This document shows, piece after piece, positions 1,353 through 16,742 of a DNA stretch of 49,604 bases; the first letter of the stretch is position 1, and each line of letters begins with the position of its first letter. Under the pieces are notes generated by a model. That model was not told the origin of the DNA, made no database searches, and worked only from the letters and a program-made list of their open reading frames with translations. Origin of the DNA: a virus; the IMG/VR virus record IMGVR_UViG_3300045988_158846, positions 1 to 49,604 of that record. One strand, 5' to 3'. The translations under genes and the position numbers were made by a program.

Positions 1353-1389
1353 TTCCTTTCCTTATTATGGTAGGCTATTAAACCTACCA

Positions 1390-1803
1390 TTATTTAACCA
1401 TCGGGCAAACAGTCATTCCATTGTCTTTCATCCAGCAAATGAAATCTTCTGCGGGGAGTTCTTCGGATAATCTCTTGAAACTTAAATCAAAATCCAGCGG
1501 CTTATAAACTGTTTCGCGGAAAATTGGATAGCTGATTTTTTCCGGCTTGTAATCTTCGCCTTTCCAGTATTTCATGTTTTCAATGTGGATTTTCTTGATT
1601 CTTCTGTCAAAAACGCCACGCTTGATTGAACCATTGATGTATCTACTGACGATTTTAACCGCAAGGTCTGTTGTATCTTTGACTTCTTCTCTTGTATCTC
1701 TTGGAGTTTCAGGACAATAAACAAGTTGCGTACTCCAATTCAGAATAGGCTCTTGGCCGTCGTTCATGTTCATGTAAATGCGTTTCCAGTACAGATTTTT
1801 CAT
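1390..1803 (-). CDS. hypothetical protein (137 aa)
   Basis: ORF track; start overlaps the stop of upstream mini-gene (ATGA overlap); TAA stop. Confidence 0.5.
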   Translation of the reverse strand: MKNLYWKRIYMNMNDGQEPILNWSTQLVYCPETPRDTREEVKDTTDLAVKIVSRYINGSIKRGVFDRRIKKIHIENMKYWKGEDYKPEKISYPIFRETVYKPLDFDLSFKRLSEELPAEDFICWMKDNGMTVCPMVK

Positions 1804-1973
1804 TTTTCATTCTCCTTTAACCAATCAATAATCTTTTCACCACATTCGATGCAGTCAATGCCATAGATATCTTCATCATCTCGACACTTGAACATCAGAG
1901 GACAACAAGCACAATCATCAAAAGTCTCGACCCATTGCTCAATGCAGTATTTCAGTTTTTCGTCAGTGTTCAT
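1800..1973 (-). CDS. Cys-rich mini-protein (57 aa; CACC...C..C..C)
   Basis: own reading (MNTDEKLKYCIEQWVETFDDCACCPLMFKCRDDEDIYGIDCIECGEKIIDWLKENEK); RBS AAGGGAGG; translationally coupled to 1390..1803. Confidence 0.4.
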   Translation of the reverse strand: MNTDEKLKYCIEQWVETFDDCACCPLMFKCRDDEDIYGIDCIECGEKIIDWLKENEK

Positions 1974-2004
1974 TAGGTGTTTCCTCCCTTAACCTTGTAC
2001 CAAT

Positions 2005-2033
2005 AGTATAACAGGTATCGGGAAAATTGTCAA
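2005..2033 (-). promoter_or_regulatory. consensus promoter TTGACA-17-TATACT
   Basis: minus strand 'ttgacaattttcccgatacctgttatact' directly upstream of RBS AAGGGAGG and ATG at 1973. Confidence 0.6.
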
Positions 2034-2078
2034 CTGTCATTTTGCACAAAATTTGCGGGTAAAAATTGTGAAAAGTGC

Positions 2079-2121
2079 TGAAAATCTAAAATGCCTGCCG
2101 CGGCGTGGGATCGCGGCAGGC
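2079..2121 (-). terminator. rho-independent terminator; hairpin gcctgccgcggcgtgggatcgcggcaggc plus U-tract
   Basis: 29-nt hairpin with GC stem, followed on the minus strand by ATTTTAGATTTT; core 'ccgcggcgtgggatcgcgg' is repeated at 4395..4421. Confidence 0.65.
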
Positions 2122-2194
2122 TCAAATCAATTTTCCATTTAATTCCAATAGACAAGTAAGAAAATGGGAACCCAAATCTGGATTCCCAAATTTT

Positions 2195-2458
2195 TCAATA
2201 TTCCTGCAAATCTTCCATAATAAGGCCGCCGTTAATGGTATCAATACTATGGAGTTTATGGCCACTTTCTCCAATTCCTTCCAGGGCCTTACAAACATCA
2301 TTGTAAAAATCATCCGAATTTTCATCAAAATAATCATACAAATGATCGCTCAGTACTTCTCCCCAAGGAATATCGCCATAATCTTCCATTGGCTTCCACT
2401 TGTCATCAATTTCCACTTCTACGGGAACGATTTTTTCAACATAGGCTACAACTTTCAT
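2195..2458 (-). CDS. hypothetical acidic protein (87 aa)
   Basis: ORF track; TGA stop; sits between terminator 2079..2121 and upstream genes. Confidence 0.5.
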   Translation of the reverse strand: MKVVAYVEKIVPVEVEIDDKWKPMEDYGDIPWGEVLSDHLYDYFDENSDDFYNDVCKALEGIGESGHKLHSIDTINGGLIMEDLQEY

Positions 2459-2537
2459 TTTTTACCAATCCTTTCAGCCCAAGGCAATCAAAATTTTAAT
2501 GTCCGTTGCTTCTTCCAGCAAAATGTCAAGCTGTTCG

Positions 2538-2732
2538 TCATTCATTTGATTCTTCTCCCCAAGTGATAATTTTTGTGTAGGTCTTTACTCCGAACATGAG
2601 TCTTTTCATGTCCAAAATAAATGAATCGGCATCACGTTCTGTGCGGAAATCTAATTCATTGCTATAATACACTTTTTTTTCATCATAGCCTGAATATTTG
2701 ACAGTAATTTTTTTAGGAATCATCATCTTCAT
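2538..2732 (-). CDS. hypothetical protein (about 64 aa; start at internal Met MKMMIPKK)
   Basis: ORF track ORF trimmed to a Met whose ATG overlaps the 3' end of the upstream gene 2713..2931; TGA stop. Confidence 0.35.
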   Translation of the reverse strand: MKMMIPKKITVKYSGYDEKKVYYSNELDFRTERDADSFILDMKRLMFGVKTYTKIITWGEESNE

Positions 2733-2931
2733 CGTCTCCCCAAATGGCAACAGCCAAAGTATAACAGTCATACCGCAAATCAGATTGAATCTTAAACAGT
2801 TTATCACTTAATTCTTGTGCTTGTGTAAAATCATAAGGGTCTGAGATATTTTTCTTTGCACGGTAAACTTTTCCAGATAATTTTTCAATCTGATTTGCCA
2901 AGTCGGTAAGCTCTTTGAGAATCTCTTTCAT
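2713..2931 (-). CDS. hypothetical protein (72 aa, acidic C-terminus DDEDDDS)
   Basis: ORF track; TAA stop. Confidence 0.45.
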   Translation of the reverse strand: MKEILKELTDLANQIEKLSGKVYRAKKNISDPYDFTQAQELSDKLFKIQSDLRYDCYTLAVAIWGDDEDDDS

Positions 2932-2934
2932 AAT

Positions 2935-3108
2935 TTATTTCTCCCTTACCCAAGAAATAGTTTTTGTAATTCGGTTGACATCTGTTCTATTTTTGATTTT
3001 GTTAATAAAACGGTCTGCTTCTTCCTCTGTATCAAAAATCAATTCTTCAAAATAATTTACGTTCCAGAAATTTACACCAGCGTAATAAACTGTAATTTTC
3101 ATTTCCAT
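2935..3108 (-). CDS. hypothetical mini-protein (57 aa)
   Basis: own reading (MEMKITVYYAGVNFWNVNYFEELIFDTEEEADRFINKIKNRTDVNRITKTISWVREK); fills the gap between neighbouring genes; TAA stop. Confidence 0.35.
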   Translation of the reverse strand: MEMKITVYYAGVNFWNVNYFEELIFDTEEEADRFINKIKNRTDVNRITKTISWVREK

Positions 3109-3135
3109 TTTTATTTCCCCTTATTTGGATGGGCT

Positions 3136-3609
3136 TTATTCAAGCCCATCCAAAATTTCTTTCAGCACATCAAGGATATTTGTGGTCGTGGGGTCAATCG
3201 CCCCGCCCAAGTTCCAATCCCGACGCACTCTTGCATCATCATCAAAAATCAGGGCTTCTTCATCTGCGGCAAGTCGTGCGGCTTCAATCTTATGCTTCGG
3301 CGTTCCATAAGCTACACATCTTAGAGTATCAAATGGAAAACCATATTCTTTCAGCCAAGCCCGTTTTGCTTTTCTGACTTCATCATCATACTGCTTGTTC
3401 GGCTCTTTAGACAGCCAAGTGATAACTGCAACATTGACGCCGCAATTCTGCAAGCTACGGAGCAGACAGGCAAGTTCTGCCATATCAACCAGCGGTTCGG
3501 CGGTCTGATAGGGTGTAGGGTCATAGGCTCGAATTTTGTCAAGCCAATCTTCAACCCCATAGAGGTCAACCAGAGTTCCATCAAGATCGAAGCACAATTC
3601 CTTAATCAT
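3136..3609 (-). CDS. HAD-superfamily phosphatase (5'(3')-nucleotidase-like), 157 aa
   Basis: N-terminal motif I FDLDGTLVD (DxDGT) typical of haloacid dehalogenase-like hydrolases; size and context as in phage nucleotidases; TAA stop inside hairpin 3127..3151. Confidence 0.7.
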   Translation of the reverse strand: MIKELCFDLDGTLVDLYGVEDWLDKIRAYDPTPYQTAEPLVDMAELACLLRSLQNCGVNVAVITWLSKEPNKQYDDEVRKAKRAWLKEYGFPFDTLRCVAYGTPKHKIEAARLAADEEALIFDDDARVRRDWNLGGAIDPTTTNILDVLKEILDGLE

Positions 3610-3642
3610 TTTATCATTTCCTTTCTCTTTTGGAGTATCTTT

Positions 3643-3671
3643 ATTATAACAGGTTCAACCAGATTTGTCAA
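3643..3671 (-). promoter_or_regulatory. consensus promoter TTGACA-17-TATAAT for the HAD phosphatase gene
   Basis: minus strand 'ttgacaaatctggttgaacctgttataat', then RBS AGAGAAAGGAAA and ATG at 3609. Confidence 0.6.
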
Positions 3672-3832
3672 GTGTTTTCTTCAAATTCTTTTTGATTTCT
3701 TTTAAGCAATTCTTCAAGAATTGCTTTCCGAATATCTCTACCGTATTTACTTATATAAGGGGCGTCAAATGTATCAAATGATAACCGCAACATATCAATC
3801 AATTCAGCCGTAGTAGCTTTTTTAATTTCCAT
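3668..3832 (-). CDS. hypothetical mini-protein (about 54 aa from Met MEIKK; longer alternative start at 3877 overlaps upstream gene)
   Basis: ORF track ORF 3668..3877; TGA stop. Confidence 0.3.
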   Translation of the reverse strand: MEIKKATTAELIDMLRLSFDTFDAPYISKYGRDIRKAILEELLKRNQKEFEENT

Positions 3833-3833
3833 T

Positions 3834-4218
3834 TTACACCAGCTTGATATTTTTATAGTTTTTAATGACGCAGGCACTTGCGAATGGCATAATTGACATA
3901 TCTTTTACACCATTATTTACACTGATTTGGATATTTTTTCCATGGGCATAAGCATATCCAATTTCCCAAGCAGTCCCAGAATCAGAATACAGACCATCAT
4001 ATACAACAAACAAGATATCGCATTCTTGAATTGCGGCAACATCCATTTTGAAAACTTCTCTTGCCCAATCCTCTTGCGACATATCCCAAGCGTTCGGGAC
4101 TGTGTGTTCTTGCGGAACATATACATCATGCCCAAGCCGCCGGAAATCAGCCGCATATGAATCAATTCTTGATTTAGTTTCGGGACGGAAAAATGCACCC
4201 GCCATGTAAATTTTCATT
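3834..4218 (-). CDS. nucleoside 2-deoxyribosyltransferase-like protein (127 aa from MKIYMAG)
   Basis: N-terminal MKIYMAGAFF and SDSGTAWEIGYAYAHGK match the hallmark motifs of the nucleoside 2-deoxyribosyltransferase / Rcl family (catalytic Glu in the WEIGY context); RBS AAGGAAA; ORF-track start at 4313 judged too long. Confidence 0.6.
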
Positions 4219-4247
4219 TTTATCATTTCCTTTCCTTTTGTACCCTT

Positions 4248-4276
4248 ATTATAGCACAGGGTAAGCCAAATGTCAA
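4248..4276 (-). promoter_or_regulatory. consensus promoter TTGACA-17-TATAAT for the NDT-like gene
   Basis: minus strand 'ttgacatttggcttaccctgtgctataat'. Confidence 0.6.
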
Positions 4277-4394
4277 GACATAAAATGGAAAATGCTTTCG
4301 TCAAATTGCACAAACATTTTGGGAAAAATTTCCAAGGGTTGGGCTGGAAGGATTTGGAAAACTTTTTTACGTTAGCACTTTAATTTGCGAAATT

Positions 4395-4421
4395 CCGGCC
4401 GCGGCGTGGGATCGCGGCCGG
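4395..4421 (-). terminator. GC hairpin ccggccgcggcgtgggatcgcggccgg (terminator-family repeat; weak U-tract)
   Basis: shares the 19-nt core ccgcggcgtgggatcgcgg with hairpin 2093..2121; flanking conserved motif 'gtgct/tagcac' as at 815 and 2079. Confidence 0.45.
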
Positions 4422-4606
4422 CTCAAATGAATTCCCAAATTATGGGATTGCCAAAATTTTCCGCATTTGATTTTTCAACTGGAAAATTATAGAATTAAAA
4501 CAGAAATAAAAAATTATTTTTTTTATATAAAAAATTATATTATTTTTTTCTATAATTTTCAAATAAGAATTTCCTCCCAAAATATGGGAGGAAACTCAAA
4601 TTGTTT

Positions 4607-4816
4607 TTAGAATTTATAATGCGGAATTTCGGAAGAATCAAGAACTCTTGCTACAGGTTCATCATTTTCGACTAACATATAGTCTTTCCCGCAATGCTTC
4701 TGAATATGGGATTCAGCTTCTGAGCGGCACGAAGCCTCCACAAAAAACAGACGCGGCCAGTCTTTCGTAGGGAGGAAGTTAATTACCAGATACTTCCATG
4801 TTTTATATCCTTCCAT
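4607..4816 (-). CDS. hypothetical protein (69 aa)
   Basis: ORF track; TAA stop, followed by hairpin ttcctccca/tgggaggaa (4571..4595). Confidence 0.45.
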   Translation of the reverse strand: MEGYKTWKYLVINFLPTKDWPRLFFVEASCRSEAESHIQKHCGKDYMLVENDEPVARVLDSSEIPHYKF

Positions 4817-4819
4817 TTT

Positions 4820-5056
4820 TTACCACTCCTTAATATTTAATGTAGCTTCTACGGCATAGACTTTTGCATCATCGGGGAAACAGTCAAATTCTCCGGTAGC
4901 CAAATCAATCGCATTGATTTCATCACCTTCATTGTCAATACATTCTGTTTTCATATGAATTGTGTCTGTTCTTGGGTCGCGGAAAACAGTTCCAACTTCC
5001 AAGGAAGCGAAATGTCTAAATTCTTTTTTCTGTGCAAATTCAATTTTCATTTTCAT
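4820..5056 (-). CDS. hypothetical protein (78 aa)
   Basis: ORF track; RBS AGAAAGGAAAAATG; TAA stop. Confidence 0.45.
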   Translation of the reverse strand: MKMKIEFAQKKEFRHFASLEVGTVFRDPRTDTIHMKTECIDNEGDEINAIDLATGEFDCFPDDAKVYAVEATLNIKEW

Positions 5057-5065
5057 TTTTCCTTT

Positions 5066-5434
5066 CTATCTTTTAACTAATTTTTTTGCCATGTTCTTCT
5101 GAATTGCTTCATATACCACTTTCGGCATTTGCATTTGCCCATTATGTCTGAAAATGGCTGTTGCTTTGTTCATGTTGACATAATACAATGTGATTAGAAA
5201 TTCCATTCGGCTATCTGTAATCAAAATCACACCTGTGTTTGTAATAATCTGCCATTTGTCTTCATATCTGAATTTTGCTACAGGTTCGCCGATTCCTGTA
5301 TTCATTTGAATTTCAACATATCTGTCTAAGCGGTCATCCTTGATATGCTGACTAACTTGCAATTTTGTGATATCCATTTCTAATTTCCTCCTTTTGGAAG
5401 AGGGCTTTTCAGCCCTCATTCCTATCATCTTCAA
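5066..5434 (-). CDS. hypothetical protein (122 aa); apparent stop codon is TAG
   Basis: ORF track; stop = reverse complement of 5066..5068 (cta) = TAG; the TAG is in frame with the ATG of the downstream gene 4820..5056. Confidence 0.5.
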   Translation of the reverse strand: MKMIGMRAEKPSSKRRKLEMDITKLQVSQHIKDDRLDRYVEIQMNTGIGEPVAKFRYEDKWQIITNTGVILITDSRMEFLITLYYVNMNKATAIFRHNGQMQMPKVVYEAIQKNMAKKLVKR

Positions 5435-5609
5435 TGTAGCGATTCAGAAATTCTTCGCAGGTTTCCGCGGTTTCATCCATATGACAAGCGGAATAGAACG
5501 GGCAGGTGGCACAGTCGCTATGACCTGTAATAAGGTTGATAAGCATTTCCTTATCGAGAATTTCATTTGCAAAAGTAGACATTTTCATTTTCATTTCCCC
5601 CTTAATCAA
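5409..5609 (-). CDS. Cys-rich mini-protein (66 aa; C.TC....C, C)
   Basis: ORF track; TGA stop overlapping the start of 5066..5434. Confidence 0.4.
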   Translation of the reverse strand: MIKGEMKMKMSTFANEILDKEMLINLITGHSDCATCPFYSACHMDETAETCEEFLNRYIEDDRNEG

Positions 5610-5742
5610 TATAAGTAGACATTAGACAAACCCATTCGCGGCTCTCATACTTCGGGCTTCTCTCCCTAGCGTCTGCTAGGGAGTAGCCATATGCAGTCTC
5701 AGTTTCGCCCGTGTTGACGTTGTACATCTCAAATTCAAACAT
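5602..5742 (-). CDS. hypothetical mini-protein (46 aa from MFEFEMYN)
   Basis: strong RBS GAGGAGGA 6 nt upstream of this internal Met; the 5' extension of the ORF-track ORF overlaps the neighbouring gene out of frame. Confidence 0.35.
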   Translation of the reverse strand: MFEFEMYNVNTGETETAYGYSLADARERSPKYESREWVCLMSTYID

Positions 5743-5746
5743 GATG

Positions 5747-5923
5747 TTAGTCCTCCTCGATGCAACCGCAGACTGTGTACCACAGACCCATATACTCGTC
5801 ATAGTTGCGGGCATATGTGTTGCAGAAATCATTGATAGATTCCGTACTGAAATCATGGTCATTATCAATCCATTCGTTCAGCAGTTCAGCGATTCTTTCA
5901 GTAGTCATTTTTTGTATCTCCAT
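5747..5923 (-). CDS. hypothetical mini-protein (58 aa, ends CGCIEED)
   Basis: own reading (MEIQKMTTERIAELLNEWIDNDHDFSTESINDFCNTYARNYDEYMGLWYTVCGCIEED); downstream of promoter 5957..5985. Confidence 0.35.
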   Translation of the reverse strand: MEIQKMTTERIAELLNEWIDNDHDFSTESINDFCNTYARNYDEYMGLWYTVCGCIEED

Positions 5924-5956
5924 TTCATTTTTTATTCGTTCCCTTGGAACAATTAT

Positions 5957-5985
5957 ATATTAGCACACCCTATAGCAAATGTCAA
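5957..5985 (-). promoter_or_regulatory. consensus promoter TTGACA-17-TAATAT
   Basis: minus strand 'ttgacatttgctatagggtgtgctaatat'. Confidence 0.55.
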
Positions 5986-6150
5986 TAGGAAAGTCAAATT
6001 TTTTTATTCGTCAATATGCACAAAGATTCTGGAAATAAATGGTATGGAATTATATGTCATAAGCTGGTAGGATATGGGAAATGGAACATAATGTCAGATA
6101 TGGTAAAATTTGACTGGAAATATTCGGAATTGGTATTAAATGGAAAATGC

Positions 6151-6196
6151 GGGGCGCGGCGAGCCTGCTGTGGATATAGCAATTTCGCCGCGCCCC
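6151..6196 (-). terminator. GC hairpin (12-bp stem ggggcgcggcga/tcgccgcgcccc, 22-nt loop); probable terminator of gene 6299..6619
   Basis: perfect 12-bp GC stem; located 100 bp downstream of the minus-strand gene end. Confidence 0.4.
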
Positions 6197-6298
6197 GGTC
6201 AGGCACTTCATTTGATTAAAGTGCTAATGATGTAAAGAAGATGATTTGAAAAATGGACTGGAAACTGTTTCCAATTTCCAGCCCTTGGGATTTCAGGA

Positions 6299-6619
6299 TT
6301 AGACCGCCTGGTGTGCCAGATTATTCCAATCGTAAATGATGCCCTGAAGATGCTCACTTGCAACTTCTCTTGCTTGCCGCCGCGTATAGGTATGTTCGGT
6401 CAGGCTGACATAATACTTTCCATCTTTGAAACGAATCTGGCAGCTCTTTCCAAAATTTCGAGTCAAATGCTTCATCCATTCAACTGCTTTTTCTGGAGTG
6501 TCAAGGATAACTGTGGCGGTATTCACTTGAAAACCGCCCTTGTACTTTTTGATATTGCCGTTCTTAAGGTTCAGGGTATCGCCATCCTGCATTTTCCGAA
6601 TAGTTCTCACGTTAATCAT
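6299..6619 (-). CDS. hypothetical protein, paralog A of a tandem duplicate pair (106 aa)
   Basis: ORF track; N-terminus MINVRTIRKMQDGDTLNLKNGNIKKYKGGFQV aligns with MINIRTIKKLADGDGLTLKNGKIKRYKSGYQV of 6642..6953. Confidence 0.55.
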   Translation of the reverse strand: MINVRTIRKMQDGDTLNLKNGNIKKYKGGFQVNTATVILDTPEKAVEWMKHLTRNFGKSCQIRFKDGKYYVSLTEHTYTRRQAREVASEHLQGIIYDWNNLAHQAV

Positions 6620-6641
6620 TTTTTATTTCTCCTCTCAAATA

Positions 6642-6953
6642 TTAAATATAAAGGCAGGCAGGATTTCCACGCCATCTGTAAATTGAAAGCTGGTTACATT
6701 TCTTGCCAATTTCAACTGCCTCGCGTTTAGTGGAAACTCGTTTGGAAATGTCAATGTAATATCTGCCATTCTCAACCCAAACGCCGCATGTGCCCTTAAA
6801 CTCTCGAACCGCCTGTATTGCCATTTCAGGGCTTATGACTTCAACTCCATTAGTGGCCACCTGGTAGCCACTCTTGTACCTCTTGATTTTTCCATTCTTA
6901 AGGGTCAGACCATCGCCGTCAGCCAGCTTTTTGATTGTGCGAATGTTAATCAT
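6642..6953 (-). CDS. hypothetical protein, paralog B of the tandem duplicate pair (103 aa)
   Basis: ORF track; clear similarity to 6299..6619 over the first ~60 residues. Confidence 0.55.
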   Translation of the reverse strand: MINIRTIKKLADGDGLTLKNGKIKRYKSGYQVATNGVEVISPEMAIQAVREFKGTCGVWVENGRYYIDISKRVSTKREAVEIGKKCNQLSIYRWRGNPACLYI

Positions 6954-6968
6954 ATAAGATTCTCCTTT

Positions 6969-7139
6969 TCAAATTTCACTTGTAAGAACAGCACACATTT
7001 CACCGTTCATATGCTTATAGACATTGTACTCGATGCCCTTAAAGGAATCAGTATAGAGATAATTCCAATAGATACCATATACATAAGAGAATGGCTTTAC
7101 TGGCAAGATGCCATCCAACAGGGTCTTGATGGTTTCCAT
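6969..7139 (-). CDS. hypothetical mini-protein (56 aa)
   Basis: own reading (METIKTLLDGILPVKPFSYVYGIYWNYLYTDSFKGIEYNVYKHMNGEMCAVLTSEI); start 1 nt after the stop of the upstream gene. Confidence 0.35.
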   Translation of the reverse strand: METIKTLLDGILPVKPFSYVYGIYWNYLYTDSFKGIEYNVYKHMNGEMCAVLTSEI

Positions 7140-7140
7140 T

Positions 7141-7293
7141 TTAATCCTCCATCATCACGAAGAAATTCCAGCTACTGTATTCAGGTCTGCCGCCAGCAGG
7201 GTTATTATGGCGGACCACCTGACAAAATGAAACAGAAATCCAGAGCATAATGATAATGCCGGACAGAGTTAACGCAAGTTTGAGATTTTTCAT
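7141..7293 (-). CDS. small membrane mini-protein (50 aa)
   Basis: own reading (MKNLKLALTLSGIIIMLWISVSFCQVVRHNNPAGGRPEYSSWNFFVMMED); N-terminal hydrophobic helix. Confidence 0.35.
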   Translation of the reverse strand: MKNLKLALTLSGIIIMLWISVSFCQVVRHNNPAGGRPEYSSWNFFVMMED

Positions 7294-7361
7294 TTTGAAA
7301 TTTTCCTTTCGACTTTTGGATTCATGTGCTCGGTTGAATTGTCAGAGAGCGGTAGAGGGAC

Positions 7362-7661
7362 TCAAATGTCCCTCACCACTAACGTCAGGTGGTCTGCCGT
7401 ATGCTCGATTGCCTGTACAATCTGATAGCTTGTGAAATGGTAAGTTGTCAGCAGGCCAGAAGTAAATACCGCAGACCGACTGCCGAACTCTACAATTTCC
7501 AGCTCCTGCATGATGTAGAGCTTTTCTTCGAGTTCACGGTAGAAGGCAGGCTGCCAAGGGCAGTTGAATGTGCTGGATAATTGCCATCTGCAATAATCAG
7601 TTTGAACATTGTTCTTATCAAGAAAACGGATTTCAGCATAGGGATTTCGTGCAGTTGCCAT
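7362..7661 (-). CDS. hypothetical protein (99 aa)
   Basis: ORF track; TGA stop. Confidence 0.45.
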   Translation of the reverse strand: MATARNPYAEIRFLDKNNVQTDYCRWQLSSTFNCPWQPAFYRELEEKLYIMQELEIVEFGSRSAVFTSGLLTTYHFTSYQIVQAIEHTADHLTLVVRDI

Positions 7662-7695
7662 ATTGTATCATCCTTTCTATTGGAAGCCAAGGGTT

Positions 7696-7884
7696 TTAAC
7701 CCTTGGCTCTGTAGATTTCTTTGCCTTTGGTGAACTGGCTCATGACTTCACCAGTCTCCATGTCAATGACATCTCTGTCATTCCGTGCCCATAAGCTGTA
7801 GGCATGTGCCATGGCTCGTGCTGCGGTCAGGCTATGGTAGATTGTGCCATACTGACCAGTCGTATGATTATAGATAGAGTACAT
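7696..7884 (-). CDS. hypothetical protein (62 aa from MYSIYNH; longer ORF-track start less likely)
   Basis: RBS AAAGGGGA 6 nt upstream of this Met; TAA stop inside palindrome gccaagggtt/aacccttggc (7685..7707). Confidence 0.4.
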   Translation of the reverse strand: MYSIYNHTTGQYGTIYHSLTAARAMAHAYSLWARNDRDVIDMETGEVMSQFTKGKEIYRAKG

Positions 7885-7919
7885 GATGTTATCCCCTTTC
7901 TGATGTTCTGGTTGAGCTA

Positions 7920-8279
7920 TTAGCTCAACCAGATCTGTTTGCTCGTTGCGATAGACCAGCGACGCCGACTTGCTGCCAGCCGCTCGACTTCCCACTTGAC
8001 CCATTCAGAGCAACCGCATTCGTCCATATCAGCGAAAATACGCTCCAGCTCCATATGGTCGCTCTTCATTGAGTGCTCGGTATAGTTTGCCTTAGCAATC
8101 TGCCGTGCAATATAGTCCTTCTGGTCCAGCAGCTTGTGGAAGGTGGCCTTGCCATCAGGCTTAGAGAAATTAACCCTGTTCATGGCGTCGTTGATGTGAA
8201 GGATAGTGTTCATCATCGCTTCCTTCCGGATTGCTCTTCGGTTGATACGGTTCATAGTTTTACCTCCATATATTGTCAA
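7920..8279 (-). CDS. hypothetical protein (119 aa)
   Basis: ORF track; TAA stop. Confidence 0.5.
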   Translation of the reverse strand: MTIYGGKTMNRINRRAIRKEAMMNTILHINDAMNRVNFSKPDGKATFHKLLDQKDYIARQIAKANYTEHSMKSDHMELERIFADMDECGCSEWVKWEVERLAASRRRWSIATSKQIWLS

Positions 8280-8309
8280 AAGTGTTGTTAGGTGTACAGG
8301 TGAAGAAGC

Positions 8310-8714
8310 TTATGCTTCTTCACCATATAGCAGGTCATGCAGTTTGTAGAAGAAGTCTTCGAGCATATGTTCAAAGATATCTGTCCATTCCTCGGCTTCT
8401 TCTTGCAGGTCTGTCAGCTTTTCATAGGCGGCTTCCCATTCTACGCAGGGATTCCCAGCCTCGGCGTCCGGTCGATAGTCGATATGCTCAAGGTCATATT
8501 CAGCACTATCGATAGCCCAAGTCAGGTTATCCCATGCGTCGATATTCTTTGCCGCATACTCATGATACTTATCCAGCATCCCATCATAGTCGAAGCTACT
8601 GCCAAGCATATGGTACCGCTTGACATATGCTATCAAGTCCTGTGCCTGCTCTGCTAACTCTGCCTTGATAGCCTTTTGTTTGTCCTGTTCGCTTGTTTTA
8701 ATTGTATATACCAT
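8310..8714 (-). CDS. hypothetical acidic protein (134 aa); first gene of the leftward early array
   Basis: ORF track; TAA stop within palindrome tgaagaagc/gcttcttca (8300..8322). Confidence 0.5.
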   Translation of the reverse strand: MVYTIKTSEQDKQKAIKAELAEQAQDLIAYVKRYHMLGSSFDYDGMLDKYHEYAAKNIDAWDNLTWAIDSAEYDLEHIDYRPDAEAGNPCVEWEAAYEKLTDLQEEAEEWTDIFEHMLEDFFYKLHDLLYGEEA

Positions 8715-8740
8715 AATTATATCAATCCTTTACATATTAT

Positions 8741-9100
8741 TTGACTGTTAGTTGTCAGCTGTCCGTGTCGCTATTTGCCGTAGGCGTTGGACTGCCCTAC
8801 AGCTTGCACCGCACCTTCCATGTTCTACCATTGCGTCCGCGGTGCGGTGCAGACGCTTGGCTTAAATTTACTTTTCAAGGTGCAAGCGGTTCGGTGCTGT
8901 CCGCGTCTGCCGGTCATTTTACGTCATTCAAGAGAACTTGCTGTGTTTGTCTCTGTCCTCTTGACATTTTGAATTGTACCACACGCGGTTCTGTTTGTCA
9001 AGAACTTTTTTTCATTTTTTCTTGACTTTTTTTCGCTTGCCTTGCGGCTTGCTTTTCGTTGTCCCGTGGGTCACTTTCTGATTCTAATTATAGCGGCTAT
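8741..9100. other. GC-rich (~55% GC) structured non-coding region between the two arms; candidate ncRNA, origin or packaging site
   Basis: no credible ORF (plus-strand ORFs 8741..9025 and 8787..8972 have no RBS and atypical composition); long hairpin 8805..8851 (11-bp stem tgcaccgcacc/ggtgcggtgca); repeated gtcaagaact at 8997 and 9110. Confidence 0.35.
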
Positions 9101-9251
9101 TTCTGAAAAGTCAAGAACTAATTTTGAAAAAATCGAATTATTTTTTTAGGGGGTTAGTCGTATCTAACTTGCTTCACTTGAATAAAGCAAGACAATAGAC
9201 TTTGATCCTTTAGTCAAATGAAGTGGGGGGGCGGTGTTTCGTGAAAAAAAA

Positions 9252-9337
9252 ATGGAAAAAATGGAAAAATCTTCCTGCCTGGAAAAATAATTTCTAAACC
9301 CATTTTCAATTCTAAAAAACGAAGATAATTTCTAAAC
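9252..9337. repeat. iteron-like direct repeats: (a)atggaaaaa x2 plus tggaaaaa, and 13-nt ataatttctaaac x2 (9287..9299, 9325..9337)
   Basis: seen directly in sequence; AT-rich non-coding stretch next to G-rich tract aagtgggggggcgg (9221..9236). Confidence 0.45.
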
Positions 9338-9354
9338 TAGAATACGGATAAATT

Positions 9355-9390
9355 TATAAAAAAAAATAAGCGGGAAAATAATTTCCCGCT
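9355..9390 (-). terminator. rho-independent terminator of the leftward regulatory operon (hairpin gcgggaaaataatttcccgc plus 10-nt U-tract)
   Basis: perfect hairpin 9370..9389 followed on the minus strand by TTATTTTTTTTTT. Confidence 0.65.
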
Positions 9391-9423
9391 TTAATATTAT
9401 TCTTTAATCACTCGATATCCATT

Positions 9424-9666
9424 CTATTCCAAGGTTTCTTTTGCAAGAGCTACGGCATCACTGGCTTCAGGACATTCAATACATAAAAAAGTTTTACCAT
9501 CTACTTCGTCAATATAAAATTCATAATTATGACCATTTACCATATGCAATTCTTCACGAAGTTTAGAAGGAATCATTAAACGTCCAACTGTATCGAGTTT
9601 TCTTGTATAAGCTGTTTTCAGCATTAAACTCACTCCTTTCTTTTTAATTGGGAGAGTGCGAGCCAT
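9424..9666 (-). CDS. AbrB/MazE/SpoVT-family DNA-binding protein (80 aa); apparent stop codon TAG
   Basis: GRLMIPSKLREEL matches the swapped-hairpin AbrB-type DNA-binding motif (GRVVIP.E.R..L); stop = reverse complement of 9424..9426 (cta) = TAG. Confidence 0.55.
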   Translation of the reverse strand: MARTLPIKKKGVSLMLKTAYTRKLDTVGRLMIPSKLREELHMVNGHNYEFYIDEVDGKTFLCIECPEASDAVALAKETLE

Positions 9667-9744: not shown

Positions 9745-10182
9745 TTAGTCAAAAGGAACAATACCTTCATTAGGGTCAATTACTCCTCGTTCTTGATGGA
9801 ACCGATAATTAGTATATCCATTTTTAAACTTATAAACTTCTACTTCAGGTATAATATATTGGTCTTCTTTATCTACAATTTTAGAACCAAGAGTAATACC
9901 GATTGGATCGCCTTCTTCTTCATATTTAGATAAATCAATAGACATTAAATCTTTTTTGTTTTTAATAACATGGACTATTCCAGGCCCAATATATTTTTCT
10001 TCTAGCCCTTTATTATATTCAATATATTTCTTATCGCTTTTAAAATTCATAAAATCTTCAAGCGCTTTAGTATAATCTTTATAGATTTTTGCTTCAATAA
10101 TTTTATCATAAATAAATCTGGCCGCGCATCCTAATCCAAGTACCGCACCACTACCTAAAAGAAGCCCATGAACAAACTTCAT
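9745..10182 (-). CDS. membrane-anchored protein (145 aa from MKFVHG; N-terminal TM helix)
   Basis: RBS GAGGGAAG upstream of the second Met; hydrophobic LLLGSGAVLGLGCAA; TAA stop. Confidence 0.45.
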   Translation of the reverse strand: MKFVHGLLLGSGAVLGLGCAARFIYDKIIEAKIYKDYTKALEDFMNFKSDKKYIEYNKGLEEKYIGPGIVHVIKNKKDLMSIDLSKYEEEGDPIGITLGSKIVDKEDQYIIPEVEVYKFKNGYTNYRFHQERGVIDPNEGIVPFD

Positions 10183-10217
10183 TAAATCACTTCCCTCAAT
10201 TTTCAAATATAATATAT

Positions 10218-10485: not shown

Positions 10486-10514
10486 TTGACTTTGCAAATT
10501 TTTTGTGTTATAAT
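10486..10514 (+). promoter_or_regulatory. rightward consensus promoter TTGACT-17-TATAAT heading the structural module; same extended motif as 26934..26962
   Basis: 'ttgactttgcaaattttttgtgttataat'; motif ttgactttg.aaatttttt.tgttataat is shared with the second copy. Confidence 0.6.
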
Positions 10515-10542
10515 TTTTTTAGAAGGATTGGAGGTATTAATC

Positions 10543-11607
10543 TTGATAAAATTAGATTATACTCTTGAAACTCCTGAAGAAAGAAATGAATTAGTAAAAA
10601 AAATCTTAGAAGAAAATCCAAATCCTAATGAAAAGTATTTAGAAATTCTTGCAGATTATCTAATTCTATGTATGGAGAAACAAGAAAAAAAAGAAAAGAA
10701 AATATTAACTGATAATAGATTAATGACAGTTAATAAGCGTGAAACTTCATTTGAAGGTCTTGTTTCCCAGTTAGAGAATGGTGAAGATGGTATATATAAT
10801 TTAATTAATAGTGATAAAAATATGATATTTTAGCCAAAAGTTACAATTACAAAAAAAGATTTAGAAGAAATTCCGAGCTTAAAACAATTAAAAGACGCTA
10901 TTACAACTTGGGAAGCAAAAATGAAAGTAGTGAGTGGTAAAGATGCTTTCACTATAAAAAAAGCCTTAATAGAAATGCGTAAAGACCAATATGTTATTAA
11001 AAATGCTTATCGGAAGCCAATAGTACCAGTAAAACTTACACGGTCCAAATATAAAATTAAGTTAGATGAAGATGTAAAAATATTTGATGATGATGGATAT
11101 CCAATTCCAGAAGGCGTCTCATTGATGAACCCTGAAATTTGCTCTTGCATTTTATGCAATTATTCTCGGTTAAAAGAAGACAGTTGGGACCGTTTTGAAG
11201 ATGATACTTGGTATCTCATCTATGATTTTGAAAATATTTGTGATGAGGCTTTGGCTGAATATCCTATGTTAATGCGTATTGTAGAATGTAAAATTGATGG
11301 ATTACAAAATATAGAAATTCAAAAAATTTTACAAGAAGAATTTAATATTACTCATAGTTTAGAATATATATCAAGTTTATTCCGCAATAAAATACCAAAG
11401 CTTATTGCCGATAAAGCTGTTGATAAATATTTAGAGTGGTATTATACAACTCAAGAAAAAGGCAAATATAAAAAATGTAGTCGATGTGGGCAAATCAAAT
11501 TAGCTCACAATAAATATTTTTCCTATAACAAAACAAGTAAAGATGGATTTTATAGTATATGTAAAAAATGCCGAAATAGTTCTCGCAAAGAAAAAATGAA
11601 ATCCTAA
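10543..11607 (+). CDS. hypothetical protein with C-terminal zinc-ribbon (CSRCG...CKKC), ~354 aa, TTG start, one in-frame TAG at 10831
   Basis: ORF-track ORFs 10486..10833 and 10921..11607 are in the same frame and joined by a single TAG; RBS GGAGG 8 nt before TTG. Confidence 0.45.
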
Positions 11608-11625: not shown

Positions 11626-12840
11626 TTGTCCAGCGAAGGTAAACAATATTATTGTGAAAAATGTAATAAAACTATGGATGGAACTTAGTTTTATACATCT
11701 AATAATTTAGATAAATATCCTAATGATGGTAAATTACCAAAATGCAAGAAATGTATAACAATGCATGTGGATAATTGGAATCCGGATACTTATTTATGGA
11801 TATTGCAAGAATGTGATGTTCCTTACATTCCTGAATAGTGGAATTAGTTAATGGGTAAATTTGCGAAAGATAGAGCGAAAGTCACTGGAATGACAATATT
11901 GGGTCGCTATCTCTCTGCAATGAAATTAAATCAATGGAAAGATTATAGATGGAAAGATAGTCAATTCTTGCAAGATTTACAAAACAAAAAAATAGAAGAA
12001 ACAATGAAGCAATAGGGGTATGATATTCAAGATATTACTACTGCTATTCAACGAGCTTCATTCTCTTTGCCGTCAGAAGAATTAAAAGAGCCGCCTCCTC
12101 CCACCCCTCCTCCCTTAGATTTTGGGAATTCTGGGGAAGATTATTTTAAAGATAAATTAGATTTTGATGTTCCTGACTTAGGTGCAGAGCTGACAGACGA
12201 AGATAAACGATATCTTTATTTAAAATGGGGAAAAGGCTATAGTCCCGATGAATGGGTACGCCTAGAGCAATTATTCAATGAAATGATGCAATCTTATGAT
12301 ATTCAATCGGCAGGTCATATTGATACATTAAAACTGGCCTGTAAGACATCACTAAAATCTAATTAGCTATTGGATATAGGTGATGTAGATGGCGCACAAA
12401 AGATGATTAAAATGTATGATTCCTTAATGAAATCGGGCAAATTTACTGCTGCTTAGAATAAAGAAGAATCTGGTGATTTCGTTGATTCTGTTGGTGAATT
12501 AATAGAAATGTGTGAGAAACAAGGATATATCGAAAGATATTATATTGATACTCCAAATGATAAAGTAGATTTTACAATTAAAGATATGTAGAAATATACT
12601 CGTACTTTAATTGAGCGAGAAACTAATCTTGGCAATATGATTGATTAGGCATTAAAACAAAACGCTAAAGAAGATAAAGAAGCCAAAGAAAACGTCGAAG
12701 ATACAATTGTTGATGATGTTGATATGTCTATTGAAGATATTGAAAAAACTTTGGAAGATAAAGATATTGAAGACTTTGGCGAATTTTTAGATAACGAGAC
12801 AGAGTTAGATATAGATGCTTTCTCTGACAGAGAAAATTAA
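11626..12840 (+). CDS. hypothetical protein with N-terminal CxxC...CxxC zinc-ribbon and acidic C-terminal half (~404 aa), 11 in-frame TAG codons; possible small terminase / packaging partner
   Basis: continuous frame from TTG 11626 (RBS AAAGGAG) to TAA 12838, containing ORF-track ORF 12067..12366; stop overlaps the terminase start. Confidence 0.45.
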
Positions 12841-14591
12841 TGGCATTACAAGACTTGCTTGACCTATCTACTAGTAGAAAAAAGATAGGTCTTTCTGAAG
12901 AACGTATTAATGCTGTAATTCCAATCATCCGTAAATATACTGCCTTTTGGCGTGAATATCCAGATTTATTTGTAGATTTTTTAGTGCGAGGAACGCGCAC
13001 AGAACCAAAAGAAGGAGAGTTTAAATTCTTTTTCTATTAGCGCGTTTTCTTACGCTGTGTTATGCGTTATCAATACGTTTATGCAGTTTTCCCTCGTGCT
13101 TATTCTAAATCATTCTTGTCAGTTATGGCATTGATGGTCAGATGTATTCTTTATCCTGGAGTCCATTTATTTGTTACTTCTGGTGGTAAGGAACAGGGTG
13201 CGAGCATCTTACACGATAAAGTTAATGAAATTTGTGATTTAATTCCCAGTTTTAAACGTGAAATTGATTGGGGTCGTGGCAAGAGCCAAGAGAGCAAGGA
13301 TAAAGTTCGCTATGTATTTAAAAATGGTTCTGTCCTTGATAACTTAGCAGCAAGAGAAAGCACCCGTGGCCAGCGTCGTCATGGTGGTTTGATGGAAGAA
13401 TGTGTAGGTATTGATGATTAGATTTTGCGTGAAGTCATTATACCAGTTATGGCAATTCCTCGTAGAGCTAAAGATGGTACAACCCATGAAGAAGAAGCAG
13501 TTAATAAATCTCAGATTTATATTACTACTGCTGGTTATAAAAATACATATCCTTATGATAGATTGATCGGCCTATTAGTTCGTATGATTACGCAGCCTGA
13601 TAGATGTATGGTATTAGGTGGTACGTGGCGAACTCCTGTCGCTGTTGGATTACAATAGAAAACATTTATTACTGACCAAAAGAATGAAGGAACTTATAAT
13701 GAAGCTTCTTTTGAACGTGAATATGAATCAATTTGGTCTGGTACTGTTGAAGATGCTTTCTTTAATGCCGAAATATTTAATAGAAATAGAATATTGAATT
13801 AGCCTGAGTATGAAGCTTCTGGCCGTTCAAGCAAGTTATCTTATTATATATTAAGTGTTGATGTAGGCCGTAGAGTATGTGATACTGTTATTTGCGTATT
13901 TAAAGTAACACCGCAACCACATGGTGAACCGATTAAAAGCTTAGTTAATATTTATACTATGAATGATACTCATTTTGAGGATTAGGCTATTAAACTTAAA
14001 AAATTATATTATAAATATAAAGCTCGTAGAATTGTAATAGATGCTAATGGACTTGGTGTTGGTTTAATTGATTTTATGGTTAAGCCATAGATTAATCCTG
14101 AAACTTCTGAAATAATTCCTGATTTTGGAGTTTATGGTGGAACTTAGGATGATGCGATTTAGGAATATAAAAAGTATAAAACTAATAGTACAGAATTAGA
14201 TGTTTTATATCTAATGAAAGCTAATGCACCAATTAATACTGAAGCTCATAGCATTACTTAGTCAGTACTAAATTCTGGCAAAATTAAATTTTTAATAGAT
14301 GAACGAATGGCTAAATAGAAATTATTAACTACTAAAGTTGGTTAGAATATGACCACAGAAGCGCGGTCTGATTATTTAAGACCATTTAGTTTAACTACTT
14401 CATTACGTGAAGAGATTATGAATTTGCGTGAAGAAAATGAAGGTTTAAATATTATTTTAAAACAAGCTAATAAAAGTATTAAAAAAGATAAATTTTCTGC
14501 ATTAGAATATGGATTATATTATATAAAAAAAATAGAAGAAGATAAAAAGAAGAAAAAATTCCGGGCTGCTGATTGGATGTTTATGAATTAA
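12840..14591 (+). CDS. terL: terminase large subunit, T4 gp17-like (583 aa), 12 in-frame TAG codons
   Basis: ATPase motifs in T4 gp17 order: Y-[TAG]-R adenine-binding position, Walker A (RAYSKS), ILHDKVNEICDLIP (cf. gp17 [13 protein letters not shown]), Walker B/catalytic (GGLMEEC, cf. IYIEDC), coupling motif (IYITTAGY, cf. IIITTTPNG), nuclease-domain Asp cluster (ILSVDVGRR); frames of ORF-track pieces 12840, 13062, 13425 and 14349 join through TAGs. Confidence 0.85.
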
Positions 14592-14600
14592 GCCGGGCAA

Positions 14601-14644
14601 CTCTTATTATTCTTTTAAATTAATTTTTAAAAGAATAATAAGAG
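14601..14644 (+). terminator. 17-bp perfect palindrome (ctcttattattctttta/taaaagaataataagag) after terL; probable terminator
   Basis: seen directly; followed by AATTTATTTG. Confidence 0.5.
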
Positions 14645-14679
14645 GAATTTATTTGTAGATAAGAAAGGAGACTTAATAT

Positions 14680-15036
14680 ATGGATGCCAGTCGTGCGGAA
14701 ATTAAGATTAGAGAAATCTTAGAGGAAGCCGGCCTGAATTTTAAAATGGAGTATATATTTCCAGATTTAAAAACACATAATGGTCGTCCTTTACGTTTTG
14801 ATTTTGTTATATTTGATGATGATAATAATATTGATTTTTTAATTGAATATCAAGGTAAATAGCATTATGAAGCCAGTAATAAGTTTGGCGGAAAACGTGG
14901 TTTATATCAATAGCAATATAACGATAATCAAAAACGTAGATTCTGTGCTTTACATGATTTACATTTAATAGAAATTCCTTATACAGAAGAAAATTTAATT
15001 TCTTACGATTATATAATGCGAAAGGCTGGATATTAA
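14680..15036 (+). CDS. small PD-(D/E)XK-type nuclease-like protein (DUF559/Vsr-like), 118 aa, 2 in-frame TAGs
   Basis: motif FDFVIFDDD...IDFLIEYQGK[TAG]HY resembles the D...E.K core of Vsr/DUF559 endonucleases; lies between terL and portal where homing endonucleases are common. Confidence 0.4.
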
Positions 15037-15053
15037 TTGAAAGAAGGTGAAGT

Positions 15054-16742
15054 ATGGAATTAGAAAAAGAAGAATTAACCAGAAATGAATAGATACATAA
15101 AAAAGGTTTCGATATAACCGGCGGAACACGAGAGTATTCTGCGGTTGGGCCTACTGATTATAAAAAAATTAAAGTAGGAGTAAAAACACTTGATGATGCT
15201 GTTTTAAACCTTGGTTCATTTAGATGGGATACATATGGGCGTCGTAACGAAAAATATAGCCGTGAACGCATTTATACTAAACCAATGGTTATGGATGCTT
15301 TAATTCGTAATGATGTTTAGGAGTTACGCCGAATATCGCGTTTCTTTTTTAGAGTAAGTGGTATTTATCAAAGAGTATGTAATTATTTTGCAAATATGTA
15401 TCGCTATGACTGGGCTATTGCTATTTAGTCAAATAATACCGATGGAACTACAGTCAAGGATATTAATGAAACTAAAGCAGTAAAAGATTTCTGGCGAATT
15501 TTAAATTATTTAGATAATTCTTATATTAAGAAAATTTGTGGCGATATGGCTCTTGAAGTTATTAAATGCGGAGCTTATTATGCTTATATTGTTCCATCAA
15601 GTACTGGTCTAATTTTACAGTAGCTTCCTATTGATTATTGCCGTTCAAGATATTCTGTAGGTAATTTACCTGCTATTGAATTTGATATGAGATATTTTGA
15701 TACTTTTATAGATACTAATTACCGTAATAGAGTATTAAAATTATTCCCTGACGAATTTACAGTAGGTTATCGTCTTTATAGAGCTGGTAAGCTTTTACCA
15801 GATGTGGCTGGTGATAATAGTGGTAGTTGGTATTTATTAGACCCACAAAGCACAATTAAGTTTGCTTTAAATGGTACTAATGATATTCCATTATTTGTAA
15901 ATGCTATTCCAGCAATTTTGGATTTAGATGCCGCACAAGATTTAGACCGCCGCAAGTAGATGCAAAAATTATTAAAGATTTTAGTTTAGAAATTACCGCT
16001 TGATAAAAATGGTGATTTGATTTTTGATATTGATGAAGCTCGTGATATTCATAATAATGCTGTTGAAATGTTGCGTAGAGCTGTAGGTGTTGATGTATTA
16101 ACTACTTTTGCCGATGTAGATGCTATTGATACTTCTGATAAAAATACTTCTGCTACTACAGATGAATTAGAGCGTGTCGAACGAACTGTATATAATGCAT
16201 TTGGCGTTTCGCGCAATTTGTTTAATACAGATGGCAATATTGCATTGGAAAAGTCCATCTTAGATGATGAATCTACTATGCGCAATTTAATTTTGCAATT
16301 CAACATATTTTTTGATAGAATATTATCAGTCCTGAATGTTCAGAAAAAATATAATTATAAGTTCTATATGTTAGAAACTACACAATATAATTATAAAGAT
16401 TTATCTAAGATGTATAAAGAGCAGACTTAGATTGGTTTCTCTAAAATGCTACCTTAGATTGCTCTTGGACAATCATAGAGTTTTATTCTTAATACAGCTC
16501 ATTTTGAAAATGAAGTTCTACATTTAAGTGAAGTTATGATACCGCCTCTTATGAGTTCTACATTAAATGGTGAAGATATTTTGGGTAAAAAAGATTAGAA
16601 TAGTTCTAACACTTCTCAAAATAAAACAAGTGGAAATACCACTACTGTAAAAACAGAAACAAAAGAGAGTGGTCGGCCAGAAAAAGCTAATGATGAAAAG
16701 AGTGAAAAAACAATCGCTAATCGTCAAGCGGCTGGTAAATAA
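15054..16742 (+). CDS. putative portal protein (562 aa), ~11 in-frame TAG codons
   Basis: position immediately downstream of terL, size, acidic/Ser-Thr-rich C-terminal tail; ORF-track pieces 15687..15959 and 16017..16430 are in one frame. Confidence 0.5.

Follow-up and report, generated by a model that had tools for sequence, protein, structure and literature searches.

Stop-codon reassignment is believed to let recoded phages set the timing of their late genes, and little of the regulatory wiring behind it has been described. The closest described systems are phages whose genomes are divided into code blocks (Ivanova et al., 2014, as cited; Borges et al., bioRxiv 10.1101/2021.08.26.457843; Mgcod, bioRxiv 10.1101/2022.06.29.495998). 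These are large gut phages of low GC content with close relatives in the standard code; they carry in-frame TAG codons in structural and late genes and an early block that is readable in either code. Here we analyse IMG/VR virus record IMGVR_UViG_3300045988_158846 (positions 1 to 49,604; this whole stretch of 49,604 nucleotides is called the window), and in particular its junction at 8715-9423, a non-coding segment across which the GC content falls sharply from the left to the right arm. The phage shares all the features listed above. It differs from the described cases in that its code boundary lies at a terminator/promoter junction, 1.2 kb away from the coding-strand switch, and coincides with a step of ~26 points in the GC content of third codon positions (GC3). 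A text search of Borges et al. and Mgcod, where GC content appears only for whole genomes or at prophage edges, found no description of a compositional split between code blocks. We consider it likely that 8715-9423 is the upstream control region of a higher-GC early-gene island, and that the GC break marks the limit of this island and of the recoded compartment alike. Loci of this kind, where the early and late code blocks of a recoded phage meet at an ordinary terminator-promoter region, are already known; several details of the present one are new.

What gives the boundary its meaning is the amber recoding of the right arm, which an earlier examination of the letters alone (the sequence-only reading) had overlooked. 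The stop-to-stop open reading frames (ORFs) of at least 150 aa add up to 4,156 aa under the standard code versus 14,483 aa with TAG as a sense codon. In the 37 kb to the right of 12 kb the standard code yields just 17 ORFs of at least 100 aa, and reading TAG as sense produces a continuous plus-strand array of long ORFs, one of them of 3,115 codons. When TAG positions were aligned to nine standard-code relatives, 175 of 312 corresponded to glutamine, followed by lysine (29) and glutamate (28), which indicates that TAG is glutamine in most of this phage's genome. The sequence-only reading had stated that both arms avoid TAG stops. This was a misreading, and the remark is the visible trace of the recoding: the right arm holds 268 in-frame sense TAGs in 21 ORFs, where TAG is about as frequent as CAA, whereas none of 18 island ORFs has an in-frame TAG and the 21 left-arm ORFs whose stops were examined end in TAA (15), TGA (five) and TAG (one). 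Fragmented ORFs, correspondence to glutamine and a TAG-free early block, the marks of a TAG-to-Gln (code 15-type) phage, are all found here. Together with the phage genes matched by PHROG, the in-frame TAGs and the glutamine alignment identify the window as part of an amber-recoded large phage, on the reading favoured here a single gut phage of ~140-190 kb with hosts of Bacillota type. Since the island lacks in-frame TAGs and the AbrB-like regulator gene on the other side of the junction contains a recoded one, the GC boundary is exactly the code boundary.

In bins of 1 kb the GC content is 38-47% to the left of ~9.0 kb and 23-40% to the right of it, and at a finer scale it drops from ~50% to ~30% between 8.9 and 9.2 kb, in agreement with the sharp step that had been proposed between 8.7 and 9.4 kb. 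The value of ~29% given for the right arm is close to the 29.9% measured over 9101-49604. The left arm, given as ~45%, is softer, with 39.9% over 1-8700 (38.1% over 1-6000 and 43.9% over 6001-8714), and the segment 8741-9100 has 47.5% instead of ~55% (52.7% over 8741-8960). The difference between the arms is mainly synonymous, with a GC3 of 0.434 in the 18 island ORFs and 0.175 in the right arm. With a GC3 of 0.187, the minus-strand genes for the AbrB-like protein and a 153-aa protein (9424-10206) go with the right side in their composition. Nor does the GC boundary coincide with the strand switch, because the coding strand changes only at 10.2-10.5 kb, ~1.2 kb from the GC and code boundary; the cumulative GC skew of the window, which had been suggested as a check on the junction, has its inflection and minimum at ~10.4 kb, at the strand switch and not at the junction.

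The two arms belong to one genome. When IMG/VR was searched with the genes flanking the junction, four contigs were found to carry the two of them together, at equal spacing. In a DNA comparison, five IMG/VR contigs of 107-188 kb matched 8000-10500 in collinear order, with 77-89% identity (8235-10500 in the 3300012662 contig). The pattern of the non-coding core was recovered from 12 further ENA assemblies and one contig of a metagenome-assembled genome (MAG), at least eight of which span both arms; the same leader variant occurs in two separate assemblies, L135 and L134, whose contig names give coverages of 207x and 1215x. The junction with its flanking genes therefore recurs across samples, being crossed collinearly in at least 14 independent assemblies that include at least eight from ENA and the five IMG/VR contigs, and the arms are not confined to separate contigs. 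The proposal of a mosaic genome also holds, in that the left arm is the more mosaic one, with patchy identities of 74-93% versus 90-98% over the full length on the right; the island thus changes faster than the core. The GC step itself is found 1-3 kb upstream of the sigma gene in most of ~45 related contigs. It averages 1.7 points in standard-code relatives (n = 7) and 6.9 points in recoded ones (n = 33; Mann-Whitney p = 0.001), and its size increases with the density of in-frame TAGs (Spearman rho 0.60, a statistic that ignores phylogeny). A search for ORF-free gaps as a sign of the same junction layout in distant relatives gave no information. Two recoded relatives, L040 and L041, show no GC step and have 1-kb stretches of just 18-20% GC at about -5 to -3 kb and +4 kb from the sigma gene.

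As the sequence-only reading had proposed, the junction contains no credible ORF: 8715-9423 is non-coding, and 1-nt indels occur throughout it in the alignment of relatives. Read leftward, the proposed order of elements would be the terminator of the operon for the 153-aa and AbrB-like proteins, an AT-rich array, candidate operator O1, a block ending in a G7 tract, promoters P1 and P2, a leader containing candidate operator O2, and the first gene of the island. The intrinsic terminator ending the AbrB-like operon (9368..9391, minus strand) has a 10-bp stem followed by a T run and is conserved in relatives. Promoter P1 (9087..9114, minus strand) reads TTGACT-16-TATAAT, and P2 (8973..9001, minus strand) reads TTGACA-17-TACAAT with an extended -10 TG; each has 11 of 12 consensus matches. 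In eight aligned relatives the -35 box of P2 is invariant and its -10 box nearly so, P1 is also conserved, and cassettes similar to P2 occur in the left arms of distant relatives. With their hexamers, a spacing within 16-18 bp, conservation and gene-facing orientation, P1 and P2 are predicted to be promoters of sigma-70/sigma-A type. The repeat gtcaagaact had been described as iteron-like. It is indeed present (GTCAAGAACT at 8997 and 9110, the only two copies in the window), and it is the reverse complement of the -35 regions of these two minus-strand promoters, the -35 boxes of P1 and P2 each lying inside one GTCAAGAAC copy.

Between the terminator and the promoters lie two further elements. 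One is a degenerate AT-rich tandem array (9284..9360, no strand assigned) with units of 25-38 nt of the form AATAATTTC[TAAACnCATTT]TCAATTTnAnAAAACG, of which the window has two, the shortest version, and relatives up to 4-5; the segment from the G tract to the terminator measures 152-211 nt across variants. The array contains the 13-nt direct repeat reported earlier (ATAATTTCTAAAC at 9287 and 9325). We rejected this repeat as a phage-wide promoter motif, its exact copies in the window being only at the junction, and GTTCTTGAC, tried as a dispersed motif, is not enriched. The other element is a conserved non-coding block (9143..9235, no strand assigned), seen in the alignment with relatives, with short hairpins and a G tract at its end that has seven Gs (9225-9231) instead of the eight first counted. 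Its core, ACTT(C/T)ATTT..TAAAG..AAAG with the G run, is kept even in L009 and L010. The block (TTTTTTTAGGGGG ... ACTTCATTTGACTAAAGGATCAAAG on the minus strand ... G7) also persists in relatives with different flanks.

AbrB binds bipartite TGGNA motifs with a spacer of 4-5 bp in any orientation (PMC3738160). Such bipartite sites number 32 in the window, compared with 3.7 +/- 1.8 in shuffles, and 20 of them fall within 2133-9266. Over 1-9423 there are 19 TGGNA pairs at a spacer of 5 bp, where ~2 are expected, and 1-6 at each of the other spacers from 0 to 20; in a scan of 3,328 combinations of a four-base pattern and a spacer, TGGNA-N5 is the top outlier (z = 12.2, the next being 5.9). Twelve of the 20 sites are intergenic, and eight of those are followed, 13-146 bp downstream, by the -35 box of a near-consensus promoter. 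As in AbrB operators, the pairs are direct, inverted or everted, often with several per region; 19 of the 20 sites have a spacer of 5 bp, where the consensus allows 4-5 bp. The sites match this consensus and can be regarded as putative operators. Two of them stand on either side of P1 and P2. Candidate operator O1 (9253..9284, plus strand) consists of TGGAA-AAAA-TGGAA (9253-9266) and a third TGGAA (9280-9284), ~140 bp upstream of P1; the tandem atggaaaaa repeat, also taken for iteron-like, is real (ATGGAAAAA twice, at 9252 and 9261) and represents this TGGAA-N4-TGGAA site of AbrB type. Candidate operator O2 (8816..8830, minus strand), TGGTA-GAACA-TGGAA, is located in the loop of the long leader hairpin, ~150 nt downstream of P2, and is invariant in 17 of 17 variants. 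Among relatives, TGGNA sites are enriched in the islands of the window's own subclade, at 14-20 sites per 8.5 kb. L043, L051 and L080 show the enrichment too, and many other relatives do not.

The AbrB/SpoVT-type regulator gene next to the junction (9397..9624, minus strand; ATG at 9624, TAA at 9397-9399) is of low GC content and has TAG as an in-frame glutamine codon at 9424-9426, so that it encodes 66 aa in the standard code and 75 aa after suppression. Behind the TAG come eight conserved in-frame codons (NGYRVIKE) and a TAA; in L009 the place of the TAG is taken by CAA/CAG, and the tail NGY(R/K)VIKE is retained up to a TAA. Two isoforms are predicted, one of 66 aa before and one of 75 aa after the code switch. 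The protein matches MraZ in Pfam (24.4 bits, cut-off 23), an antitoxin-like family in PHROG and, by phmmer against the PDB, SpoVT (2RO5, E value 1.1e-3), AbrB (1YFB, 2.7e-3) and Abh (2FY9, 0.024). These matches are weak but consistent and suggest an N-terminal domain of the AbrB/SpoVT (swapped-hairpin) type, in which the motif RK(L/V)D..GR..IP..LR aligns to the DNA-binding domains of AbrB, Abh and SpoVT (PMC3738160, PMC3025583). Compared with that family, this member is phage-encoded, short (66-75 aa) and different in its C-terminal part, with a recoded TAG before a conserved tail, and its DNA binding is a prediction. It is 100% identical across contigs that differ by 11-15% in their DNA, and related small AbrB-like genes are common in the phage family; tblastn found no match to it in cultured phages. 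MraZ itself binds TGGGN direct repeats at a 10-bp period in the mra promoter and has two swapped-hairpin repeats in ~150 aa. MraZ is the best Pfam match of the phage protein, and the TGGNA sites likewise have a period of 10 bp. The identification as MraZ was nevertheless rejected, since only 27 residues of one swapped-hairpin half match, as against the two repeats of MraZ.

A conserved structured 5' leader of ~250 nt (8715..8968, minus strand) would extend from the inferred start of P2 transcription (~8966) to the start codon of the first gene (ATG at 8714). Its pairing, all on the minus strand, comprises a 5' hairpin (8964-8958 / 8934-8928), a small helix (8904-8901 / 8889-8886), a long hairpin (8861-8794) and the helices 8792-8761 and 8757-8742; the 11-bp stem seen at the outset is confirmed as a perfect inverted repeat (8805-8815 / 8841-8851). 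The 161-nt core has a mean column identity of 93% over 17 variants, and the downstream protein is much more divergent, although its homologues follow the leader in 17 of 17 variants. In L009 the core is 88.5% identical compared with 68-72% for the flanking genes, and the first-gene homologue, of 128 aa, is visibly diverged. In a manually defined five-helix structure 94.3% of the cells are paired, four pairs show double changes and a path from C-G to U-G to U-A is seen; the covariation score is reached by none of 500 shuffles, with the modest statistical power of an alignment of close relatives. The 28 G.U cells point to the transcribed strand, the minus-strand RNA being 98.9% paired versus 94.1% for the plus strand. 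In another group of variants the 5' hairpin is swapped for different, still complementary arms, and the fold of the single sequence has a z of -2.8. Compensatory pairing on the transcribed strand, contiguous with the ribosome-binding site (RBS), suggests a cis-acting structured mRNA leader. The idea of a structured non-coding RNA thus holds in so far as part of the GC-rich stretch is a structured RNA, and fails on any Rfam family: a search of Rfam 15 gave no match at the gathering score in the window, and at E values of up to 10 only meaningless fragments over 8715-8968. A covariance model of the leader, run against 45 sources, retrieved only the window's own subclade. The GC-rich element was also considered as a suppressor tRNA and rejected: the tRNA search found none in the window, and the CUA of the 8754-8745 loop becomes CUG in L009.

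Upstream of the junction, the gene for the 153-aa protein of no assigned function (9745..10206, minus strand) is the first of a short leftward operon whose promoter (10431-10403, minus strand) matches the consensus at 12 of 12 positions. Diverging from it is a phage sigma-factor-like gene (10486..11607, plus strand; promoter at 10486-10514; PHROG 5767, sigma factor, E value 1e-52) with a single in-frame TAG at 10834-10836, which the PHROG match crosses. Among relatives this position is glutamine (CAA/CAG) in 46 and TAG in 26. Since both the AbrB-like and the sigma genes have an in-frame TAG at a conserved glutamine, their full-length forms would be produced only after amber suppression starts; the earlier products would be an AbrB-like protein short by nine conserved residues and a sigma protein cut at residue ~116.

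From these parts we propose the following course of events. The island can be translated in the standard code of the host, and host RNA polymerase would transcribe it immediately after infection through P1, P2 and the internal promoters. A protein of AbrB type would then bind O1 and O2, which bracket P1 and P2, and ~18 further TGGNA sites near internal promoters, and would modulate early transcription, repression being the most likely outcome. The most economical candidate for this binder is the phage AbrB-like protein encoded next door. If both regulators depend on suppression in this way, the silencing of early genes and the activation of late ones would be tied to the code switch. It is conceivable, and we advance it only tentatively, that the junction is the hinge of a code-gated developmental switch, in which an island of host-like composition, written in the standard code and carrying ~20 operators of AbrB type, would be silenced by a repressor that suppression completes, together with the sigma factor that would turn on the AT-rich recoded genes.

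The part of the island within the window (1..8714, minus strand) comprises ~23 small ORFs of 50-160 aa, and in relatives the full island measures ~14-15 kb. At its far edge, reached in L146-L149, the GC content falls to 26-30% and convergent genes begin that are open only when TAG is taken as a sense codon. In 1-10.5 kb the coding strand has ten near-consensus promoters, versus five in the 39 kb of the right arm (~1/kb vs 0.13/kb), and besides P1 and P2 the island proper has seven of them and several intrinsic terminators on the same strand. In large Bacillota phages of the SPO1 type a host-takeover cluster of many small genes with strong host-type promoters and terminators lies beside sigma-controlled later genes. 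The island resembles those modules in its cluster of small genes, promoters, terminators and sigma neighbour, the likeness being one of layout. The first gene of the leftward operon (8310..8714, minus strand; RBS AAAGGA) encodes an acidic protein of 134 aa with no family match, modelled by AF2 as a three-helix bundle with low confidence (pLDDT 69). Most other island products are small proteins of no family, Pfam and PHROG searches of the island being mainly empty. Among them, minus-strand genes at 3834-4235 and 3136-3609 encode a nucleoside 2-deoxyribosyltransferase (Pfam E value 2e-21) and a 5'-3' deoxyribonucleotidase-like protein, which suggests an early manipulation of the nucleotide pool. 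The sole TAG stop of the island (5054-5068, minus strand; ORF 5066-5434) shares its frame with the next ORF (4820-5056), in whose RBS region it lies, and suppression there would fuse the two proteins. The lengthening of left-arm ORFs when TGA is read as sense was considered as TGA recoding and rejected, because the extensions overlap in different frames and the gaps hold ordinary small ORFs with ribosome-binding sites.

On the other side, the TAG-recoded structural and packaging block, defined by PHROG matches and recoding, occupies 11674..49604 of the plus strand. It includes the large terminase (12840-14591) and portal (15054-16742) genes, both identified by PHROG, further virion proteins matched in the same way, and a 3,098-aa ORF (27660-36953) that is open with TAG as sense and contains 109 TAGs, all on the plus strand. 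Three genes for presumably abundant virion proteins (19136-20272, 20374-20940 and 24274-25437) have no TAG and a GC content of 0.37-0.39, and their neighbours have 4-14 TAGs each. The closest large terminases of cultured phages are those of Geobacillus virus E3 (48%), Enterococcus phages of ~135-142 kb (45%) and SPbeta-like phages; no close DNA relative was found among cultured phages. A 37.8-kb contig with the junction, L145 (CAMELE010000019.1), is binned in an "uncultured Mollicutes bacterium" MAG, which is either a hint at the host or a binning artefact.

Several observations weigh against the control-region reading or against parts of the mechanism built on it. L043 and L051 are enriched in TGGNA sites and have no AbrB-like gene in the 20 kb fetched, and conversely L058-L078 have a similar AbrB-like domain and no enrichment; considering that the two do not co-occur cleanly, the binder could be a protein of the AbrB family supplied by the host. 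O1 is present in most variants, but L005 and L138 have other sequence in its place. No function is assigned to the leader, which occurs in a single subclade, and the AT-rich array and the block at 9143-9235 find no explanation in the model. A search for tRNA and tmRNA genes came out empty, both for the window of 49.6 kb and for 34 related loci, each of 20 kb and covering distances of up to 10 kb from the junction, a span that leaves ~100-140 kb of the genome outside it. The machinery of the code switch is therefore unseen in these loci; in Mgcod the Sup-CUA tRNA is usually at the 5' end of the recoded strand, where this phage has none. The correlation between GC step and recoding is uncorrected for phylogeny and has exceptions in L016, L040 and L041. 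Finally, the 153-aa, AbrB-like and sigma genes are driven by early promoters and adjoin the island, yet are of low GC content, so that being early does not by itself explain a high GC content.

Other explanations of the junction have to be set against the control region. That the window is an assembly chimera, two unrelated elements of ~40% and ~30% GC joined at 8.7-9.4 kb, is almost certainly wrong: the abrupt change in GC and GC3 is its sole support, and the same junction with its flanking genes is present in the five IMG/VR contigs and at least eight independent ENA assemblies, phage-like genes stand on both flanks, and the GC step is a trait of the family. It is quite unlikely that the junction is a replication origin, as the sequence-only reading had also suggested, with the AT-rich units of 9284-9360 as iterons beside an unwinding element. 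Direct repeats of variable copy number in very AT-rich DNA, and a cumulative GC-skew minimum nearby at ~10.4 kb, would suit an origin, but the minimum reflects the coding-strand switch and lies 1 kb from the repeats, DnaA-like boxes are not in excess (13 seen, 17 expected), and neither an initiator nor a replication gene lies next to them. Unlike iterons, the units are degenerate, of unequal length (25-38 nt) and of varying copy number, and the other repeats proved to be promoter boxes or TGGNA sites. Some large Bacillota phages (SPO1, Twort-like) have early small-gene modules in their terminal redundancies, and the junction could by analogy be the boundary of a terminal repeat or a packaging start, with a linear genome and the early island at its end. 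Of 80 related contigs, 16 have an end in the 1.5 kb that precede the sigma gene, and the terminase genes are 2.3-3.4 kb to the right. Contig starts near the sigma gene include those of L061, L067, L013, L042, L083 and L084; in L069 positions 1-23 are an Illumina adapter (CCTACACGACGCTCTTCCGATCT) joined to phage DNA near the start of this gene, and this adapter end may mark where the genome physically ends, or the assembly may have broken there, at the variable island's edge. The contig ends, however, map to the divergent promoter region and the AbrB-like gene and not to 8.7-9.4 kb, strain variation that breaks assemblies would explain them equally well, and many long contigs read through, which makes a genome end at the junction very improbable.

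Two further alternatives leave the promoters in place and concern the GC-rich DNA itself. In AT-rich genomes, structured islands of high GC content often turn out to be RNA genes, and 8720-8890 could be a free-standing small-RNA gene, for example for a processed regulatory or structural RNA, instead of a cis leader. Its conservation, far above that of the downstream protein at 93% column identity, and a covariation specific to the minus strand would fit such a gene. There is, however, no terminator before the RBS and the start codon 25 nt downstream and no match in Rfam, a DNA operator would account for the invariant loop just as well, and the element is always linked to the same first gene; we regard a separate small RNA as unlikely. 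The second alternative, which is possible although we would not favour it, is that the island owes its GC content to a continual horizontal gain of small accessory genes from a higher-GC pool, in hosts or other phages. GC content would then not be a constraint tied to the code, and the junction would be a conserved promoter cassette beside a recombination-prone region. The heterogeneity of the island (per-gene GC 0.31-0.49, GC3 0.23-0.62), its patchy identity of 74-93% with gaps compared with 90-98% on the right, the recovery of the 134-aa first gene in only four IMG/VR relatives by a close search, the clustering of relatives' contig ends just right of the island and the low GC content of early-promoter-driven genes outside it all point in this direction. 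Against it, a raised-GC island stands at the same place in very many diverged relatives, and the GC step tracks recoding, which flux does not predict unless recoded lineages have hosts of higher GC content. Gene flux is compatible with the control region and competes with it only over why the GC content is high. An adaptation of pre-switch genes to host translation would fit the correlation with recoding, and both causes can apply.

The recoding and the GC step have practical consequences. A gene caller using the standard code would see the right arm (10486-49604, plus strand) as nearly gene-free, and detectors of chimeras or prophage boundaries that rely on composition could take the GC step for a misassembly or an integration site. 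The locus also offers parts that can be tested: a joint boundary of code and composition, two regulators predicted to depend on suppression, dense sites of AbrB type and a conserved leader. If the junction is indeed the hinge of a code-gated switch, the GC split, which grows with recoding across the family, would be the mark that two regimes of translation have left on the composition of a single virus.

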